The translations under genes and the position numbers were made by a program. A stretch of 63,839 bases of DNA, counting the filler, from Acidimicrobiia bacterium (GTDB taxonomy: Bacteria > Actinomycetota > Acidimicrobiia > Spongiisociales > JAENVV01), in NCBI GenBank assembly GCA_041577335.1. It is 3 parts of 3 records of this genome, joined end to end, with 100 filler letters (N's around TTAATTAATTAA, not from the genome) between each part and the next. Parts side by side here need not be neighbours in the genome. Positions count along the whole stretch, not along the records: positions 1 to 23,550 come from JBFGJH010000055.1; 2 more parts are not named here. One strand, given 5' to 3'. Below the pieces are notes generated by a model. That model was given only the letters and a program-made list of their open reading frames with translations, was not told where the DNA came from and did no database searches. Of this stretch, positions 3 to 46,601 are shown piece after piece (the stretch's first letter is position 1; the number at the start of each line of letters is the position of its first letter).

Positions 3-896
3 GCCTCCGCCCCCGAATCCTCGGTTGCCTATGCGTCCCAGCAAGCCCATTCCTCGATCGAGAAGGGCGCCAAGGTCGCCGGGATCAGGCACATTCGGCT
101 CATCGATGTCGATGAAGACTTGGCGATGCGGCCCGACGCTCTGGGCGACCAGATCCGCCACGATGTTGCTGCGGGGCTCACTCCGGCATGGGTGTGCTCT
201 GCCGTTGGGACGACCGGCACCACTGCGGTCGATCCGGTCAGGGCGATAGGCACGATCGCCCGTAGCCATGGCCTATGGCATCACGTCGACGCGGCCTTCG
301 CCGGGTCGGCGATGATCTGCGAAGAGTTCCGGCATTTCCAAGATGGCTTGGAGATGGCCGACAGTTACACGTTCAATCCCCACAAGTGGCTGATGACCAA
401 TTTCGACTGCTCGGTGCTTTTTGTGGCAGATCGTGGTCCGCTGCTCGATACGATGAGCATCCTCCCGCCCTACCTCCGCAACTCTGCCTCCGAGTCTGGA
501 GAGGTGATCGACTACCGCGACTGGCATGTTCCGCTGGGTCGCCGCTTCCGAGCGCTGAAGCTCTGGTTCGTGCTCCGCGCCTACGGTGCACAGGGACTCC
601 GGGCGGTCATCCGCGAGCATGTTGCGGCAGCCGGCGAGCTGGCCGGGAACCTCGCCGCTGATCCCCGCTTCGAGCTGGTGGCGCCCGTCCCGTTTTCCCT
701 TGTCTGTTTCCGGCATGTCGACGGCGACGCGGCGACCGATGCACTGGCTGCTGCCGTCAACGAGGAGGGTCCTGCATTCCTGACTCCGTCGAAGCTGCCC
801 GACGATTCCTCCTTCATCCGTGTGTCGATCGGCCAGACCAACACCCGCCGCGAGCACGTCGTGGCGTTGTGGGAGATGTTCGACCGGCTTGCGTGA
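3..896 (+). CDS. Group II PLP-dependent (aromatic L-amino acid type) decarboxylase, 5' truncated by window edge
   Basis: Frame open from nt 3 (AYASQQAHSSIEKGA); motifs GTTGTTAVD, HVDAAFAG, NPHKW (PLP lysine), LGRRFRALKLWF. Confidence 0.9.
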   Translation, partial: ASAPESSVAYASQQAHSSIEKGAKVAGIRHIRLIDVDEDLAMRPDALGDQIRHDVAAGLTPAWVCSAVGTTGTTAVDPVRAIGTIARSHGLWHHVDAAFAGSAMICEEFRHFQDGLEMADSYTFNPHKWLMTNFDCSVLFVADRGPLLDTMSILPPYLRNSASESGEVIDYRDWHVPLGRRFRALKLWFVLRAYGAQGLRAVIREHVAAAGELAGNLAADPRFELVAPVPFSLVCFRHVDGDAATDALAAAVNEEGPAFLTPSKLPDDSSFIRVSIGQTNTRREHVVALWEMFDRLA

Positions 897-945
897 AGCC
901 GGCCCGCTCGGTCTAGATTTGGAGTCCGCGCGAAAGAGGCGCTCG

Positions 946-2097
946 ATGAGCAACTGGCCCGGCGTAGGCGTAACCCAAACGCAGTTTCTGGATTACCCGG
1001 ACGAATTGCTGCCGTTCAAGCTGCAGTCCGGGGAAACACTGCCCGAACTGCGCTTGGCCTATGAGCTCTATGGTGAGGTCAACGCCGACCGCTCCAACGT
1101 CATACTCGTCTTCCATGCCCTCACGGGCAGCCAGCATGCCAGCGGATGGACCGAATCGGTGCCCGGTGTCGACAAATGGTCAGAAGAGTGCCAGACCGGC
1201 TGGTGGTCGGGATTCGTCGGCCCCGGCCTTGCCTTCGACACGAATGACTACGCGGTCCTGTGCGTCAATTATCTCGGCGGTTGCTACGGGTCCACCGGGC
1301 CTTCTTCGATCGACCCCCGGACCGGCAAGCCATATGGTGGATCGTTCCCCGAGCTCACTCTGTCAGACATCGTTGACGCGCAACTTCCCCTCCTCGACCA
1401 CCTGGGGATCACGCGTCTGCATGCGGTGACCGGCGGGTCGGTGGGAGGCATGATGTGCCTCAGCCTGGCCACCCGTCACCCCGACCGGGTCTCCAAGGTC
1501 ATTCCCATCGCAGCCGGCCTCCACACGACGGCTCTGCAATTCGTGCATAACTTCGAGCAGACGAACGCGATCCTCAACGACCCCAACTACAACGGAGGCG
1601 ACTACTACGACGGTCAGCACCCAGACGAGGGGCTGTCATTGGCAAGGATGATCGGCCACAAGACCTTCGTGTCGCTCGACGCCATGCGCCTCCGGGCGCG
1701 GGGAGAAGTCAGCGGGGCGGGCCCGCCAGGATATGAGATGCGTCATCCGCTCGAGTCATACATGTGGCATCAGGGCCAGCGGTTTCTCGAGCGGTTCGAT
1801 GCCAATACGTATGTCCGCCTCATGACCGCCTGGCAGCACTTCGAGTTGGCGGCCGAGGCGGGGGTCGATTCGGTCGCCGAGGCTCTCGAGCGGTCGGTCG
1901 GCCATGAGTACCTTCTCTTCACGATCGACAGCGACGTCTGCTTCTATCCGGACGAGCAAGACGACATGCGCGACCAACTCGCGGCCGCGGGAGTGTCGGT
2001 GCGGCACGAGGTGGTGTCATCTGACAAGGGCCACGACGCGTTCTTGCTGGAGCCGCACCTCTTCGAGTCGACTTTGCAGGATTTCTTGAGCGCCTAG
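946..2097 (+). CDS. metX: Homoserine O-acetyltransferase (alpha/beta hydrolase fold)
   Basis: HALTG, NYLGGCYGSTGP, GGSVGGM nucleophile elbow, RFDAN, GHDAFL; ATG at 946. Confidence 0.9.
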   Translation: MSNWPGVGVTQTQFLDYPDELLPFKLQSGETLPELRLAYELYGEVNADRSNVILVFHALTGSQHASGWTESVPGVDKWSEECQTGWWSGFVGPGLAFDTNDYAVLCVNYLGGCYGSTGPSSIDPRTGKPYGGSFPELTLSDIVDAQLPLLDHLGITRLHAVTGGSVGGMMCLSLATRHPDRVSKVIPIAAGLHTTALQFVHNFEQTNAILNDPNYNGGDYYDGQHPDEGLSLARMIGHKTFVSLDAMRLRARGEVSGAGPPGYEMRHPLESYMWHQGQRFLERFDANTYVRLMTAWQHFELAAEAGVDSVAEALERSVGHEYLLFTIDSDVCFYPDEQDDMRDQLAAAGVSVRHEVVSSDKGHDAFLLEPHLFESTLQDFLSA

Positions 2098-4547
2098 GCG
2101 GGCAGGTTGCGTGGAGCGAAGGTCATCACGTCGGCGAGGCCGGTCGTTCCGATCTTCTCAACCCGGCCTTTGCCGAGCTTGAAGTTGTAACGGAGGCTGA
2201 TTGGCTGGAGCGACGAATCGCCTGGGGTCACCGAGTTCGCCGGACTTCCCGGATACAGGAAGTAGGTGAACGTCACTCCCGGAGGCACGATGTCGCTGAC
2301 ATAGGCCACCGCCGTGAAGGCTCCGCTGGTTGGATTTCCGAGCTGATCCCGGATGGAATCGGAGCTGATTGACAACAGGTCTCCGCTCACGATGCCGCCA
2401 GACCGGGCGTCTTCTTCGTTGATCTCCAGGAAGTTCATCGGCCAACGATCGACAGAGATGACCCGGCGAGCGTTGTCGAACAGGTTGTTCCACAGTGCAT
2501 TCACGCGCCCGTTCAGGACCCAAAGCTCTCCCGGCCCTGGGGCCAGGATGGCGTTTCGGGCATCGACTGCATCCCAGTCGGGAAAGACGAAGTTCAACTT
2601 GCCACTGTTCGTCTTCCACTTCATGTCTGCATGGAGGCGTGGTGTCTCGGCGAGCGCACCCGCTTCCAGACGCAGCGGCGTTTGCAAACCCTGCGTGCCG
2701 TAGGTGCGGAGGAGATCGTGACCTCGCTCTCCCTGTTGTTGCGCCAACTCCACCAATGCCAGGAAGTCCTGGCGCCCGCCCGACGAGGTCGGAGCGGCTT
2801 CCTCGAAGATCTCGTTGGAGTCACTCCAGTCGAAGCCGCTATAGCCCATCTTGCGGGCGACTTCGGCGAAGATCTGCCAATCGGGACGTGCGTCTCCCGG
2901 CGCGTCCATGAACTTCTCATAGATGCGAAGCCGGCGTTCGGCGTTGTTGCGGGCGAAGTCTTCTTCGCCCCAGGTGGCCGCGGGCAGGATGATGTCTGCG
3001 AAGGGGGTGGAATCGTTGTGATAGATCTCTTGATGGACCACCACCATGCCGCCCGCATCGATGCGGTCTCGCAGTTCGGCGAACGCGATGGCAGGTCTGG
3101 TCGATGTCACCGGTGGCCCTACGGTGGTGAGTTCCTCAACGCGGGCAGCGAGACCTTGGGAGGCGCCCATAGCGCCGATCCAGTTCGTCCCGACGATCCA
3201 CCGGAACCGAGTGTTGCCTTCGACCAGCCAGCGCTCCGTATCCATCTCGATGGGATTGCCTTGGTAGCTGTCGGGGGATTTCTCGATGGGATAGCCGGCT
3301 GCTTTCCGTCCGCCTCGCTGGTGCCCTCCCATGCGTCCAGTCGCTCTCCCCGGCTGTCCAGAGGAGCCCAGCACCACACCGAGGTTTCCGATCGCAGCGG
3401 TGTTCTCGTAATTGTGGGACCAGTAGAGACCCTTCTCGAACAACACCATCGCCTTGGGTCGTGCCGCTCCGCCTCCAGTCAGAATTGCGGCGGCCTGCCG
3501 GATCTTGTCCGCAGGCACGCCGGTGATGGCAGAGGCACCTTCGGGCGTGAACTCGTCGCGACTGAACAGGTAGTCCTGAAGCTCTTCGAATGTCCTACCG
3601 AAGAGTTGCCGGCGCCAGCCTGACTCACCGTCCAGTTCTTCACGATTGGCGACGTACTGGTCGATGAACTCCGTGTCCTCCCAGCCGTTGGCGATGATCT
3701 CGCGCACCAAGGCGTTGTAGAGGGCAACGTCGGTTCCTGGTCGGAGCTGAAGATGCAGTCCGCCGCGGCTTTCAGCAAAGGCCGCCGTAAACGTCTTCCG
3801 AGGATCGACGTAGATGATCGTTGCCCCGCCGGGTGCTTGGAATGTCGTGAAGCGCACCGTCTTGGTTTCGTACGGGTCGCTGCCGGCAATGAAGATGACG
3901 TCGGCCTCGGCGTCGTCTTCGAATGCAGATCCGAATGCATCGATGCCGGTGTCGGACAGGCCGGGGACATCATCACCATCAGCCGGAGCATGGTGAGGCG
4001 AGAAGTTGGGCGTGGCAATTTCCTTGAGCGCCAGCTTGCTGGCTGCGTACGTGTTCTCGTAGAACTCGTACGAGTAGATCTTCATGCCCCAGGCCAGCTC
4101 GCCATAGTTATCGATCACATGCCGTCCGAGGTCCGCAACGAGGTCGGTTGCCATCTCCCATGAGATCGGGACGAAATCGCCCCGGACCTTGAGCAGCGGG
4201 GTGGTGAGGCGATCGGAGGTGGGGCCGTCCTTGGTGTACACCTTCTTGGCAAGCGCTCCACCTCTGACAGAGTGGGTGCCTCCTTTGTTGACCACCTGCG
4301 AATCCCCGTCAGGCAGGATCAGGAGGTTGTGGGGGTGCCCAGAAAGCTCGATTACGTTGTGCATGGTTTCCGATGCCCACTTGCCGGAGAGCGGCAAGGT
4401 CGGTAAGTCCACCCCAAGCGCATTGTCAGACTCTGTGCCGTCTGTGCCGACGGGCCAGGTGTACACCTTGTATCCGCAAGCGATGGGGCAGTACTCGCAG
4501 CAGATGGACTTGATCGTGGCGTCGACGGGAGGGATCGGGACACTCAT
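2094..4547 (-). CDS. Molybdopterin oxidoreductase large subunit, arsenite oxidase/iodate reductase (AioA/IdrA) family, non-canonical
   Basis: C17-x2-C20-x3-C24...S93 [3Fe-4S] signature (CEYCPIACGYKVYTWP...HSVRGG), EKGLYW, RMGGHQ, ADIILPAATWGE, ERRLRIYEKFMDAPG, C-terminal NGRVN/YNFKLGKG. Confidence 0.9.
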   Translation of the reverse strand: MSVPIPPVDATIKSICCEYCPIACGYKVYTWPVGTDGTESDNALGVDLPTLPLSGKWASETMHNVIELSGHPHNLLILPDGDSQVVNKGGTHSVRGGALAKKVYTKDGPTSDRLTTPLLKVRGDFVPISWEMATDLVADLGRHVIDNYGELAWGMKIYSYEFYENTYAASKLALKEIATPNFSPHHAPADGDDVPGLSDTGIDAFGSAFEDDAEADVIFIAGSDPYETKTVRFTTFQAPGGATIIYVDPRKTFTAAFAESRGGLHLQLRPGTDVALYNALVREIIANGWEDTEFIDQYVANREELDGESGWRRQLFGRTFEELQDYLFSRDEFTPEGASAITGVPADKIRQAAAILTGGGAARPKAMVLFEKGLYWSHNYENTAAIGNLGVVLGSSGQPGRATGRMGGHQRGGRKAAGYPIEKSPDSYQGNPIEMDTERWLVEGNTRFRWIVGTNWIGAMGASQGLAARVEELTTVGPPVTSTRPAIAFAELRDRIDAGGMVVVHQEIYHNDSTPFADIILPAATWGEEDFARNNAERRLRIYEKFMDAPGDARPDWQIFAEVARKMGYSGFDWSDSNEIFEEAAPTSSGGRQDFLALVELAQQQGERGHDLLRTYGTQGLQTPLRLEAGALAETPRLHADMKWKTNSGKLNFVFPDWDAVDARNAILAPGPGELWVLNGRVNALWNNLFDNARRVISVDRWPMNFLEINEEDARSGGIVSGDLLSISSDSIRDQLGNPTSGAFTAVAYVSDIVPPGVTFTYFLYPGSPANSVTPGDSSLQPISLRYNFKLGKGRVEKIGTTGLADVMTFAPRNLPA

Positions 4548-5125
4548 GCGGACGCTCCCACCGCTTCGCCTCCGGAGAGGTTGTCAGCGAACCCATAAAT
4601 CAGCCGGATCACTCCCGTGGCGTACACGGCGTTGTCCTCGATGGCGAGGCTTATCTGGGGAAGGTTCTGGGTCGCCTGGCCGAGGACGACCTGGCCACCC
4701 TTCTGCAAGTCGAAGGTCGAGTAGTGACATGGGCAAGGACCAAGCACGCCGATCTCAGGCTTGTAGGCCTCGATGACGCATCCCATGTGGGTGCAGATGC
4801 GGGAGAACGCCACCAAATCTTCGCCCTCGCCGACGCCGCCGAGTATGGGCTGGTTGGCCTGGACGAGGAGGTTGGTCTGGCCAACTAGCGGATAGTCGAA
4901 GGTGACCGGTTCGGTGATCGGCAGATCGGCCACTTTCACACGCGGGAAGGTGGAAACGAGCGCAACCGGCGGTGGCGGGACGGTTCCTGGAGGCATCGTG
5001 GTCGTTGCCGTGGCGACTGTGCCATCGCTCTGCAACGACTGGGTAACGGGGATGACGACGCCCACCGCAGTAGTTGCTCCAACGGCGATGCCTGCCCACA
5101 AGAATTCCCGGCGCGTGATTTCCAC
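4544..5125 (-). CDS. Rieske 2Fe-2S small subunit with Tat signal (AioB/IdrB-like)
   Basis: TRREFL twin-arginine motif plus hydrophobic helix; CTHMGC...CPCH; GQATQNLPQ; 4-nt overlap with the large subunit. Confidence 0.9.
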   Translation of the reverse strand: MEITRREFLWAGIAVGATTAVGVVIPVTQSLQSDGTVATATTTMPPGTVPPPPVALVSTFPRVKVADLPITEPVTFDYPLVGQTNLLVQANQPILGGVGEGEDLVAFSRICTHMGCVIEAYKPEIGVLGPCPCHYSTFDLQKGGQVVLGQATQNLPQISLAIEDNAVYATGVIRLIYGFADNLSGGEAVGASA

Positions 5126-5249
5126 TGATGACTCCTCTTTTGCACGTGATCGTGCTGGCCCAGCATAGGAGCGGACAAGGGACCTATGGCCCCGTCATGG
5201 GGCCGTTGGTCACTGGAGCTCCTTCGGGTCTTCCGGGAGGCTGCCTGGC

Positions 5250-5711
5250 GTGGACCCGAAGACAACAGCCGACAACCAATCCCCTTCCTGGGCAACATTC
5301 CTCGCGGGCATCGGCATCGGCTTCGTGGTGGCGGTGACTTTGGGCCTTTCCGTGGCGCTTTTCGCGTCGGTGGGTGCCGAAGCCAGCCCTACAGCCATGG
5401 CGGATGATCCCGCTCTCGTCGTCAGCCAGGGTGAGGCGGCTGCCACGGCCTACGGGTGCGCTGCCTGTCACAGCGTCGATGGCACCCGCGGCATCGGGCC
5501 CTCCTGGCTGGCCGTGGCCGGGAGCGACCGTCCATTGGCGGACGGGACGTCCGTTGTGGCCGACACGGACTACCTGGTGGAGTCGATCCTCGATCCCAGT
5601 GCGCAACTCGTGGCAGACTTCGACGACGCGATGCCCAAGGGGCTTGGAGACGTCCTCAGTGCCGAAGACCTCGATGCGGTCGTCGCCTACATCGAGTCGC
5701 TGGGCGGATAG
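5250..5711 (+). CDS. Membrane-anchored monoheme cytochrome c
   Basis: N-terminal hydrophobic helix, CAACH heme motif, GPS, YLVESILDP...MP distal Met region. Confidence 0.85.
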   Translation: MDPKTTADNQSPSWATFLAGIGIGFVVAVTLGLSVALFASVGAEASPTAMADDPALVVSQGEAAATAYGCAACHSVDGTRGIGPSWLAVAGSDRPLADGTSVVADTDYLVESILDPSAQLVADFDDAMPKGLGDVLSAEDLDAVVAYIESLGG

Positions 5712-5714
5712 TCG

Positions 5715-6929
5715 CTACAGCGTCGACAGAGCCTCGAGCAGGCGATCGACTTCATCCACCGACGTGTAGTGCAGGAACCCGATCCGGACGAGCCCGCCAC
5801 TGTCGAGGAGGCCAAGGCTCTCCATGACCCCCACTGCGTAGTAGTGGCCGTCCCAGACGAAGATGCCCTGCTTGCCGAGGCGGGCGGCAACATCGCGGGC
5901 GCCCATGCCTGCCACGTCGATCGTGAAGGTCGGCACGCGACCGTCCATGGTCGCGATGCCGTAGAGCCGTATCCGGTCGATGTCCCTGGCTCCTTCCAGG
6001 AACCTTGCTCCCAGCATGAGCTCGTGCTCGCCGATGCCTGCGTAGGCGGCAGCCAGCTTGTCTCGCCGCGTCTCGCCTTCTCCGAGTGATGCGAGATAGT
6101 CGACGGCCGCCGTGACCCCCGCCAGGCTCTCGAAACTCTGCGTGCCGGTCTCCCACTTGGCGGGCCCGCTCGCAGGTGACGGCCGTACCTTGTAGGCGTC
6201 GAGAGTCTCCAACAGCTCGGGCCGTCCGTAGACCATCCCGGTATGGGGGCCAAAGAATTTGTAGGCCGACACGGCGAGGAAGTCGCAACCGATGGCGTCG
6301 ACGTCGATGAGACCGTGGGGGGCGTAGTGGACGGCGTCGACGTACACCAGGGCGCCGGCTGCGTGGGCGGCCGAGGTGATGGCGGCAACATCTACCACCG
6401 TTCCCAGAGCGTTCGACGCATAGGTCACGGCCACGAGCCGGGTGCGCGGCCCTATGGCATCGGCGACCGCTCGGGAATCGAGCGTGAACGTCTCGGTATC
6501 GAACGGCACCTCGGTGACGTCGACTCCGTGCTCTTCGGCAGCCAAGACCCATGGTGTTCGGTTGGCGTCGTGGTCGAGGGCGGTGACCACGATGTGATCG
6601 CCAGCGTTCCAGGTGCGTGAGAACGCTCGACTGAATGCAAACGTGAGGCTGGTCATGTTCTGGCCGAACACGATCGACTCCGGGCCGGCCGCCCCCAACA
6701 AATCTGCAACCGCTCGACGGGCTGCGTTGGTGGTCCGGATTGCGGCTCGACCCGCCGCGAACAGGGGACTCAGATTCGAGACACCGTCGGACAAGACGCG
6801 ATCCATCGCCTCGATCACCGAGGCGGGGACCTGACTCCCACCCGGGCCGTCGAGGTAACTCGCCTGATGGTCGCCGACCTCGCGGCGCAGTGCCGGGAAC
6901 TGTGCTCGGGTCGCGGCGATGTCAAACAT
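5715..6929 (-). CDS. Cysteine desulfurase-like protein (aminotransferase class V)
   Basis: YLDGPGGSQVP, LDHDAN, VDAVHYAPH, SAYKFFGPH, ETGT. Confidence 0.88.
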   Translation of the reverse strand: MFDIAATRAQFPALRREVGDHQASYLDGPGGSQVPASVIEAMDRVLSDGVSNLSPLFAAGRAAIRTTNAARRAVADLLGAAGPESIVFGQNMTSLTFAFSRAFSRTWNAGDHIVVTALDHDANRTPWVLAAEEHGVDVTEVPFDTETFTLDSRAVADAIGPRTRLVAVTYASNALGTVVDVAAITSAAHAAGALVYVDAVHYAPHGLIDVDAIGCDFLAVSAYKFFGPHTGMVYGRPELLETLDAYKVRPSPASGPAKWETGTQSFESLAGVTAAVDYLASLGEGETRRDKLAAAYAGIGEHELMLGARFLEGARDIDRIRLYGIATMDGRVPTFTIDVAGMGARDVAARLGKQGIFVWDGHYYAVGVMESLGLLDSGGLVRIGFLHYTSVDEVDRLLEALSTL

Positions 6930-23550: not shown

Positions 23551-23650
23551 NNNNNNNNNNNNNNNNNNNNNNNNNNNNNNNNNNNNNNNNNNNNTTAATT
23601 AATTAANNNNNNNNNNNNNNNNNNNNNNNNNNNNNNNNNNNNNNNNNNNN
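23551..23650. other. Artificial contig linker
   Basis: N run + TTAATTAATTAA (stops in all six frames) + N run. Confidence 0.97.
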
Positions 23651-46501: not shown

Positions 46502-46601
46502 NNNNNNNNNNNNNNNNNNNNNNNNNNNNNNNNNNNNNNNNNNNNTTAATTAATTAANNNNNNNNNNNNNNNNNNNNNNNNNNNNNNNNNNNNNNNNNNN
46601 N
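46502..46601. other. Artificial contig linker
   Basis: N run + TTAATTAATTAA + N run. Confidence 0.97.

Follow-up and report, generated by a model that had tools for sequence, protein, structure and literature searches.

In a window of 63,839 nucleotides (the whole stretch of DNA analysed here, from the Acidimicrobiia assembly GCA_041577335.1), we identify a gene module in which a Rieske subunit and a large molybdoenzyme subunit of the AioA/IdrA family are transcribed divergently from a membrane-anchored cytochrome c. By sequence, the two subunits fall in a well-supported clade that is sister to the iodate reductase IdrA, not to the arsenite oxidase AioA. We propose, with a probability of about 45%, that the module is an oxyanion reductase that would be induced at low oxygen, would work without peroxidases and would most likely act on iodate. 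Iodate is our best single guess because of the phylogeny, the residues of the substrate funnel, the marine habitat and a known precedent: canonical Idr serves aerobic marine bacteria as an electron sink when oxygen is limiting (PMC11445184, partial text). The existence of an uncharacterised Aio/Idr variant with a carrier and a regulatory logic of its own we regard as real.

The window joins three contigs (C55, C56 and C71) with N spacers at 23551-23650 and 46502-46601, and the stretch contiguous with the module is positions 1-23550 (contig C55) only. The host assembly measures 3.38 Mb and is 90.75% complete. The features are:

2094-4547, minus strand: large (catalytic) subunit, an open reading frame (ORF) of 817 amino acids; molybdenum-bis(pyranopterin guanine dinucleotide) (Mo-bisPGD)/[3Fe-4S] enzyme of the AioA/IdrA family, "HH-loop" clade
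4544-5125, minus strand: Rieske [2Fe-2S] subunit, 193 amino acids; TIGR02694 and motif survey
5177-5194, no strand: palindromic box of DosR/DevR type, the stronger of two in the shared promoter, 12.3 bits
5198-5215, no strand: weaker tandem box, 9.5 bits, 21 bases from the first
5250-5711, plus strand: membrane-anchored monohaem cytochrome c, 153 amino acids, divergent from the Rieske gene; PF00034 above cut-off
820-2097, plus strand: metX; NF001209 above cut-off
5715-6929, minus strand: desulfurase-like gene; TIGR01976

Placement of the enzyme beside IdrA

The large subunit is 40% identical to the IdrA of Azonexus NCP973 and 29% identical to the AioA of NT-26, the range over AioA as a whole being 29-31%. 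Its closest homologues, the best 120 of 725, are 53-75% identical to it, and the clade holds at least 120 sequence clusters; the named members among these best 120 come mostly from Acidimicrobiia and other Actinomycetota, with single entries from Acidobacteria, Thermoplasmata and Dehalococcoidia, and the named genome loci agree. Trees built with FastTree (100 rows) and with IQ-TREE under LG+G4 (40 rows) had the same topology. In the latter, the HH clade that contains the query was supported at 100/99 and was sister to IdrA plus two further representatives, the joint node receiving 100/100; the query lay beside the IdrA clade (100/100) and not inside it, and AioA stood separately (100/100).

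The large subunit carries the [3Fe-4S] motif C17-x2-C20-x3-C24...S93, matching the family pattern C-x2-C-x3-C-x~70-S, and its A189 aligns to A203 of NT-26, which places a small residue at the Mo-ligand position, so that both marks of an AioA/IdrA-family Mo-bisPGD enzyme are present. It has no signal peptide, matches the domains PF00384, PF18465 and PF01568, and scores 441 bits against TIGR02693 (cut-off 359). This last match is not diagnostic of AioA, because the iodate reductase of Azonexus NCP973, a proven iodate reducer (PMC13455634), carries the same label and indeed both arsenite-oxidase NCBIfam labels. The best Foldseek match of the AlphaFold model (predicted local distance difference test, pLDDT, 91.8) is AioA, with a TM-score of 0.85; there was no IdrA entry among the PDB matches.

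The active-site loop HHAPADGDD aligns to HNRPAYNSE of NT-26 AioA, GGHQRG to GGHQEG, and YSYEFYENTY to the stretch FDHGG...ENTW. We compared the active-site positions across 120 clade, 33 idrP-linked IdrA and 19 AioA sequences, scoring eight second-sphere residues of the NT-26 enzyme: D169, H199, R201, E207, K413, R447, H451 and E453 (PMC10448176, partial text). Four of the eight are identical in the large subunit, the changes being D169S, R201A, E207D and E453R; H199, K413, R447 and H451 are conserved in the clade, IdrA and AioA alike. The position of D169 is occupied by Ser in 118/120 clade and 33/33 IdrA sequences and by Asp in 19/19 AioA, and that of E453 by Arg in 119/120 clade and 32/33 IdrA sequences and by Glu in 19/19 AioA. 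R201 is replaced by Ala or Asn in the clade and is variable in IdrA, never being Arg in either, while E207 is Asp in 120/120 clade sequences and variable in IdrA. N200 separates all three groups (Asn in 19/19 AioA, Asp in 33/33 IdrA, His in 120/120 clade), so that the loop pair reads H-H throughout the clade and H-D throughout IdrA, the H-D pair being an IdrA feature defined from our own alignment and not from the literature. The resulting His186/Asp193 pair is specific to the clade. Given that two funnel acids are lost and an Arg is gained, as in IdrA, we infer that the funnel suits an anionic substrate. In AioA, D169A and E453A lower activity by 30 and 65% (PMC10448176, partial text).

Taken together, the tree and the residues rule out a bona fide AioA. 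A first-pass annotation of this DNA had described a Rieske gene and a large subunit with the [3Fe-4S] signature, quoted the same three motifs, judged the variants to be more like IdrA, and assigned the pair to an AioA/IdrA-related group in an actinobacterium. The two ORFs, the cluster ligands C17, C20, C24 and S93, the aligned motifs, the IdrA-type Ser and Arg of the funnel and the Acidimicrobiia among the nearest named relatives bear this out, and the phylogeny that it had called for places the protein outside AioA and sister to canonical IdrA.

It had also noted that no idrP gene flanks the module, and this proved general: idrP homologues flank 0/33 clade loci versus 26/29 IdrA-type loci (non-redundant loci with 3 kb upstream). 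The host assembly, at its 90.75% completeness, has no PF03150 match and no tblastn match to Azonexus IdrP1 or IdrP2, and these searches rule out a canonical IdrA with idrP elsewhere in the genome. PF03150 occurs in 3/26 clade genomes, each with a single copy not linked to the module, and as two genes each in the canonical controls G244, G049 and G427.

The distribution of the clade is patchy. Eight members were found in 400 genomes of the class, with canonical Idr in one further genome; among 60 relatives, four have the clade module and one further genome has canonical Idr; and the module is absent from a congener that is 98% complete (G001). A sample of 400 Chloroflexota genomes contained no clade member, one canonical IdrA and 11 AioA-type proteins; the outer HHNT subclade belongs to Dehalococcoidia. 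Canonical idrP1P2BA clusters occur in genomes of the host's own order (locus L059 in G244, L061 in G049). Three IdrA-clade proteins with an xHDNPGK loop (L111, L114 and L119, the IdrA-like gene lying near 6000 or 4750) have no idrP within 4.7-6 kb upstream and form another peroxidase-less variant; two of these loci are listed with no haem proteins nearby and with a conserved gene of about 535 amino acids, of no assigned family, downstream. A further group of very long family members (1100-2100 amino acids; P0132, P0148, P0150, P0153, P0157 and P0160-P0176), with an HDRP loop and GGHQKG, branches just outside IdrA plus the HH clade.

The divergent carrier and the shared promoter

The Rieske subunit scores 116.8 bits against TIGR02694 (cut-off 95.65), and its ORF overlaps that of the large subunit by 4 bases. 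At its N-terminus a twin-arginine motif, TRREF, precedes a hydrophobic helix that is likely an uncleaved membrane anchor; the upstream Rieske subunit of the family, with predicted export by the twin-arginine translocation (Tat) pathway, is thus present at 4544-5125. It retains the two extra Cys of the disulfide (CTHMGC...CPCH). In three other loci (L026, L090, L093) the Tat signal of the Rieske protein ends in a lipobox-like Cys, suggesting a lipoprotein rather than transmembrane anchoring. An outer GDDTPGL subclade (L017, L057, L058, L060, L062, L088) has lost the disulfide in the style of NT-26 (an aromatic/Gly pair) and is also without an adjacent carrier and without a box.

The cytochrome c at 5250-5711 has an N-terminal transmembrane helix, the haem motif CAACH and a distal Met. 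Of the loci of the core subclade (at least 62% identity) that have 2 kb upstream, 23/31 carry a divergent carrier gene in the same slot, as a cytochrome c in 15 (three sequence types) and as a type-1 cupredoxin in eight; none of 32 IdrA loci has a carrier gene in this slot. When 738 membrane segments, including 732 controls from the host genome, were ranked with a profile of the cytochrome anchors, 5/6 cupredoxin anchors came within the first 6, so that one conserved anchor bears swapped redox heads. Since one-electron carriers are interchangeable in the slot, it probably houses the electron partner of the enzyme, and the cytochrome of the window is its predicted partner. Protein P0003 gave a marginal match (E 0.005) to the haem domain of subunit II of the genome's caa3 oxidase. 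Where the first-pass annotation spoke of a module with no arsenic or iodate accessory genes, it overlooked accessory parts that are there: this conserved cytochrome gene lies within the very segment that it described, unmentioned, and the regulatory boxes beside it are conserved too.

A matrix built de novo from 41 clade promoters, the window excluded, yielded an 18-base-pair palindrome with the consensus TAGGGAC-N4-GTCCCTA and a total score of 452, compared with 227-245 in five shuffles of the promoters. At 12 bits or more the motif is found in 27/34 core promoters, a count that is partly in-sample in that only the window and its near-duplicates were held out, versus 0/36 IdrA and 0/4 AioA promoters. 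The boxes of the window match the published Dev box, an 18-base-pair element with G3G4G5C7, A or T at position 9 and tandem strong and weak sites (PMC3177182, partial text); a strict count of tandem sites gave 0, the second site of the window falling just under the threshold of 9.5. By sequence, then, the shared divergent promoter carries DosR/DevR-type boxes as putative regulatory sites.

At 14469-16274 of contig C48, amid Usp/CBS genes, the host has an orthologue of DevR (E 1.5e-69 to 3c3w) and, next to it, a GAF kinase resembling DevS/DosT (E 6e-39); similar DevR/DevS pairs adjoin the module in loci L016 and L064. None of the 15 sites in the genome that score at least 14 bits falls within a gene body, gene bodies making up 78% of the genome. 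The top site (24 bits) precedes rrf2-nirK; further sites stand before a second respiratory molybdoenzyme (Psr/Arr-like, with three subunits), a ferritin/cupredoxin pair, an Rv2632c-like gene and a Usp gene. Switching on of the module at low oxygen via DevR is likely on these grounds. At C21:18729-24354 lies a Psr/Arr-like molybdoenzyme, exported by Tat and accompanied by Fe-S and NrfD subunits; it scores under every family cut-off, has the same palindrome in front of it (17.1 bits) and adjoins a cupredoxin gene.

Contigs from independent runs (X1, X3) bridge the junctions metX/large subunit, large subunit/Rieske and Rieske/cytochrome/desulfurase with few differences, and because they span these junctions a misassembly of the locus is ruled out. 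The runs that hold the locus are labelled marine and sediment, plus one "soil" study, and no RNA run is listed among them. Matches to NF001209 and TIGR01976 confirm the earlier placement between metX and a desulfurase-like gene. Across the clade the flanks are variable and metabolically unrelated (75 neighbours scanned); one module adjoins mobB and nosZ (L084 9128-12869), another a cbb3-type oxidase (L053 11988-15126).

Electron path, substrate and competing explanations

In the mechanism that we propose, the Tat signal of the Rieske protein would export the folded AB pair and remain as its membrane anchor, with the enzyme facing outward, and a DevS-type haem sensor together with DevR would activate both divergent promoters under hypoxia. 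Electrons would pass from menaquinol through the bc complex to the anchored cytochrome c (or cupredoxin) and would then reach Mo by way of the Rieske centre and the [3Fe-4S] cluster. The funnel, which has lost two acids and gained an Arg, would bind an anion and not neutral As(OH)3, and the Mo site would hand the electrons to a high-potential oxyanion without IdrP1P2; H2O2 or HOI, if formed, could be handled by general defences such as the catalase-peroxidase that the genome encodes. Carriers in this range of potential would be able to feed only acceptors that lie above about +300 mV, of which iodate and nitrate are the likely ones among the oxyanions of seawater. The host is otherwise equipped as an aerobe, with caa3 and cbb3-like oxidases and a bc complex.

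Several observations weigh against a low-oxygen iodate reductase. Every characterised iodate reducer of the family has IdrP1P2, and these proteins co-purify with IdrA in characterised systems (PMC10149662, partial text). The carrier architecture is seen in 0/7 outer-clade loci and the motif in 0/10 outer-subclade promoters; besides the partly in-sample core count, the sites of the window are modest (12.3 and 9.5 bits), and 47 sites in the genome reach at least 12 bits. AioAB, too, has a cytochrome c or azurin-type partner, and hypoxic induction would also suit an oxidase that feeds cbb3 or NirK. The Rieske disulfide pair, present in many AioB, is found in 37/38 core loci versus 0/40 IdrB, the effect of this disulfide on the potential of AioB being small (-35 mV; PMC3758308, partial text). 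His stands in place of the invariant IdrA Asp at N200 and Asp is kept at E207, so that the chemistry may differ from that of IdrA; we stress that this unique His/Asp pair warns against assuming the same reaction. Finally, moaA was not found in this assembly, likely an assembly gap, because 5/5 relatives have moaA and moeA/moaC-like genes are present on contig C7 of the host. The same genome has a formate dehydrogenase-like molybdoenzyme match at C50:15579-17528 with one in-frame TGA, possibly selenocysteine.

The strongest competitor, which we nevertheless hold to be rather unlikely, is an AioAB-like oxidase. Arsenite, antimonite or another reduced species would be oxidised outside the cell, the electrons leaving via the anchored cytochrome c or cupredoxin to cbb3/caa3 oxidases or NirK, and DevR control would mark micro-oxic use. 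Both subunits pass the cut-offs of TIGR02693 and TIGR02694, the first of which also labels a proven IdrA as arsenite oxidase. H199, K413, R447 and H451 are kept, with E207 as Asp, whereas D169, N200, R201 and E453 are all changed; D169A and E453A reduce the activity of AioA only partly (PMC10448176, partial text). The Rieske disulfide recalls many AioB and the one-electron carrier recalls AioAB, and the host does have caa3 and cbb3-like oxidases; yet the large subunit nests with IdrA and away from AioA, and control falls to an oxygen sensor and not to an arsenic sensor. An "unknown clade" described in 2021 also held haloarchaeal proteins from arsenite oxidisers (PMC8692401, partial text). The genomic context argues the other way: no clade locus has a match to an arsenic island (aioXSR, ars, pst), the search for ars, pst-specific, aioX and phoU homologues returning generic ABC ATPases only, and acr3 is above cut-off in 0/21 clade genomes and intact nowhere in the host. 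The first-pass annotation was right that aioXSR and ars genes do not flank the module; elsewhere in the genome lie an ArsC-like protein and, at C36:23949-24341, a 130-amino-acid acr3 fragment under cut-off that looks like a broken arsenite exporter. Its proposal of an oxyanion of iodine, antimony or arsenic can be narrowed: the dedicated carrier and the DosR/DevR-type promoter favour a reductase that works at low oxygen, which leaves oxidation of arsenic or antimony less likely.

Next in rank, and also unlikely in our estimate, comes the same low-oxygen reductase wiring with a different oxyanion of high potential as its substrate: nitrate, which would feed NirK, is the most plausible, ahead of chlorate, bromate or selenate. 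The host has nirK (NirK-like, 285 bits, just under the cut-off of 296) in a common predicted regulon with the module and has neither narG nor napA; the His186/Asp193 pair is the clade's own, and a peroxidase would be needless if no H2O2 or HOI forms. Across genomes, narG is rarer with the module (2/21) than in relatives without it (9/23), a difference confounded by kinship and by the completeness of metagenome-assembled genomes, and two clade genomes do carry narG; napA was absent from all 44. Yet nirK is not commoner in clade genomes (10/21 versus 9/23), no nitrate or nitrite transporter occurs among the 75 neighbours scanned, and the funnel residues match IdrA. A third alternative we hold to be improbable: an enzyme of detoxification or redox balance that would conserve no energy and whose substrate would be an organic oxide or oxyanion, such as a methylated species of arsenic, sulfur or iodine. 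The patchy distribution (8 members in 400 class genomes, none in the congener G001), the variable flanks and the smaller loop residues, which could admit a bulkier substrate, would suit it, but the module's own membrane-anchored carrier and its respiratory regulon suggest a place in the respiratory chain, and the potentials of dimethyl sulfoxide, trimethylamine N-oxide and arsenate are too low for a cupredoxin donor.

Returning to iodate reduction, a broader proposal is possible, if doubtful: that monoderm sediment bacteria possess a second, peroxidase-independent system of iodate respiration, in which IdrP1P2 would be replaced by swappable heads, either a cupredoxin or a cytochrome c of one of three types, borne by one conserved anchor. 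If this is true, iodate is reducible without dedicated removal of H2O2, and delivery of electrons may be the chief role of IdrP1P2. What IdrP1P2 do, and which oxygen species iodate reduction yields, are stated to be unresolved (PMC11445184 and PMC10149662, partial texts), and a natural peroxidase-free sister enzyme makes the role of IdrP1P2 directly testable. If iodate is reduced, abundant Acidimicrobiia and Dehalococcoidia of marine sediments would join the iodine cycle, having been missed by surveys requiring idrABP1P2; if nitrate is used, the module would be a nitrate reductase of a new kind. In both cases pipelines label these proteins as arsenite oxidase, likely inflating aioA counts in marine metagenomes, and the branch sits at the transition between AioA and IdrA and bears on which reaction arose first.

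Comparison with known systems

We found no account in the open-access literature of the actinobacterial peroxidase-free clade, its carrier or its DevR control, subscription papers being outside the search. The partial texts of PMC10100899, PMC10746228, PMC9477243 and PMC8941161 do not describe the architecture of the module, and the Idr literature examined, likewise in part, does not mention an actinobacterial canonical Idr. The closest precedent is the peroxidase-less "unknown clade" outside IdrA reported by Reyes-Umana et al. in 2021, with haloarchaeal proteins and one from Dehalococcoidia (MBT97654.1), for which further study was urged (PMC8692401, partial text). By its description it resembles the present clade in being an IdrA outgroup without peroxidases and in its Dehalococcoidia member, as in the outer HHNT subclade here; it differs in that the available parts contain no actinobacterial name in the supplements and no analysis of residues, carrier or regulator.

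With IdrABP1P2 (Pseudomonas SCT, Denitromonas IR-12, Azonexus hydrophilus NCP973) the module shares sisterhood in the tree, the B-then-A gene order, the [3Fe-4S] and Rieske centres, an expected lack of a protein ligand to Mo, Ser at D169, Arg at E453, the YSY...EN and GGHQRG motifs and 40% identity to the NCP973 IdrA. It differs in lacking idrP1P2 (0/33 versus 26/29 loci), in the His that replaces the invariant Asp after the catalytic His, in the invariant Asp at E207, and in the retained Rieske disulfide (37/38 versus 0/40), the divergent anchored carrier and the DosR-type boxes (27/34, partly in-sample, versus 0/36). With AioAB (NT-26, Alcaligenes faecalis, Thermus) it has in common the fold (TM-score 0.85), the cofactor motifs, H199/K413/R447/H451, a small cytochrome c or blue-copper partner and the NCBIfam models passed, whereas the identity of 29-31%, the separate clade, the replacement of D169, N200, R201, E207 and E453 and the lack of aioXSR, ars or pst genes set it apart. 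The promoter recalls the DevRS (DosRS) hypoxia regulon of actinobacteria in its 18-base-pair palindrome with G3G4G5C7 half-sites, its tandem strong and weak sites and its divergent arrangement, as well as in the DevR/DevS orthologues and the Usp/CBS members; it differs in that the regulon here, as predicted from the sites, seems to take in nirK and an enzyme of the AioA/IdrA family.

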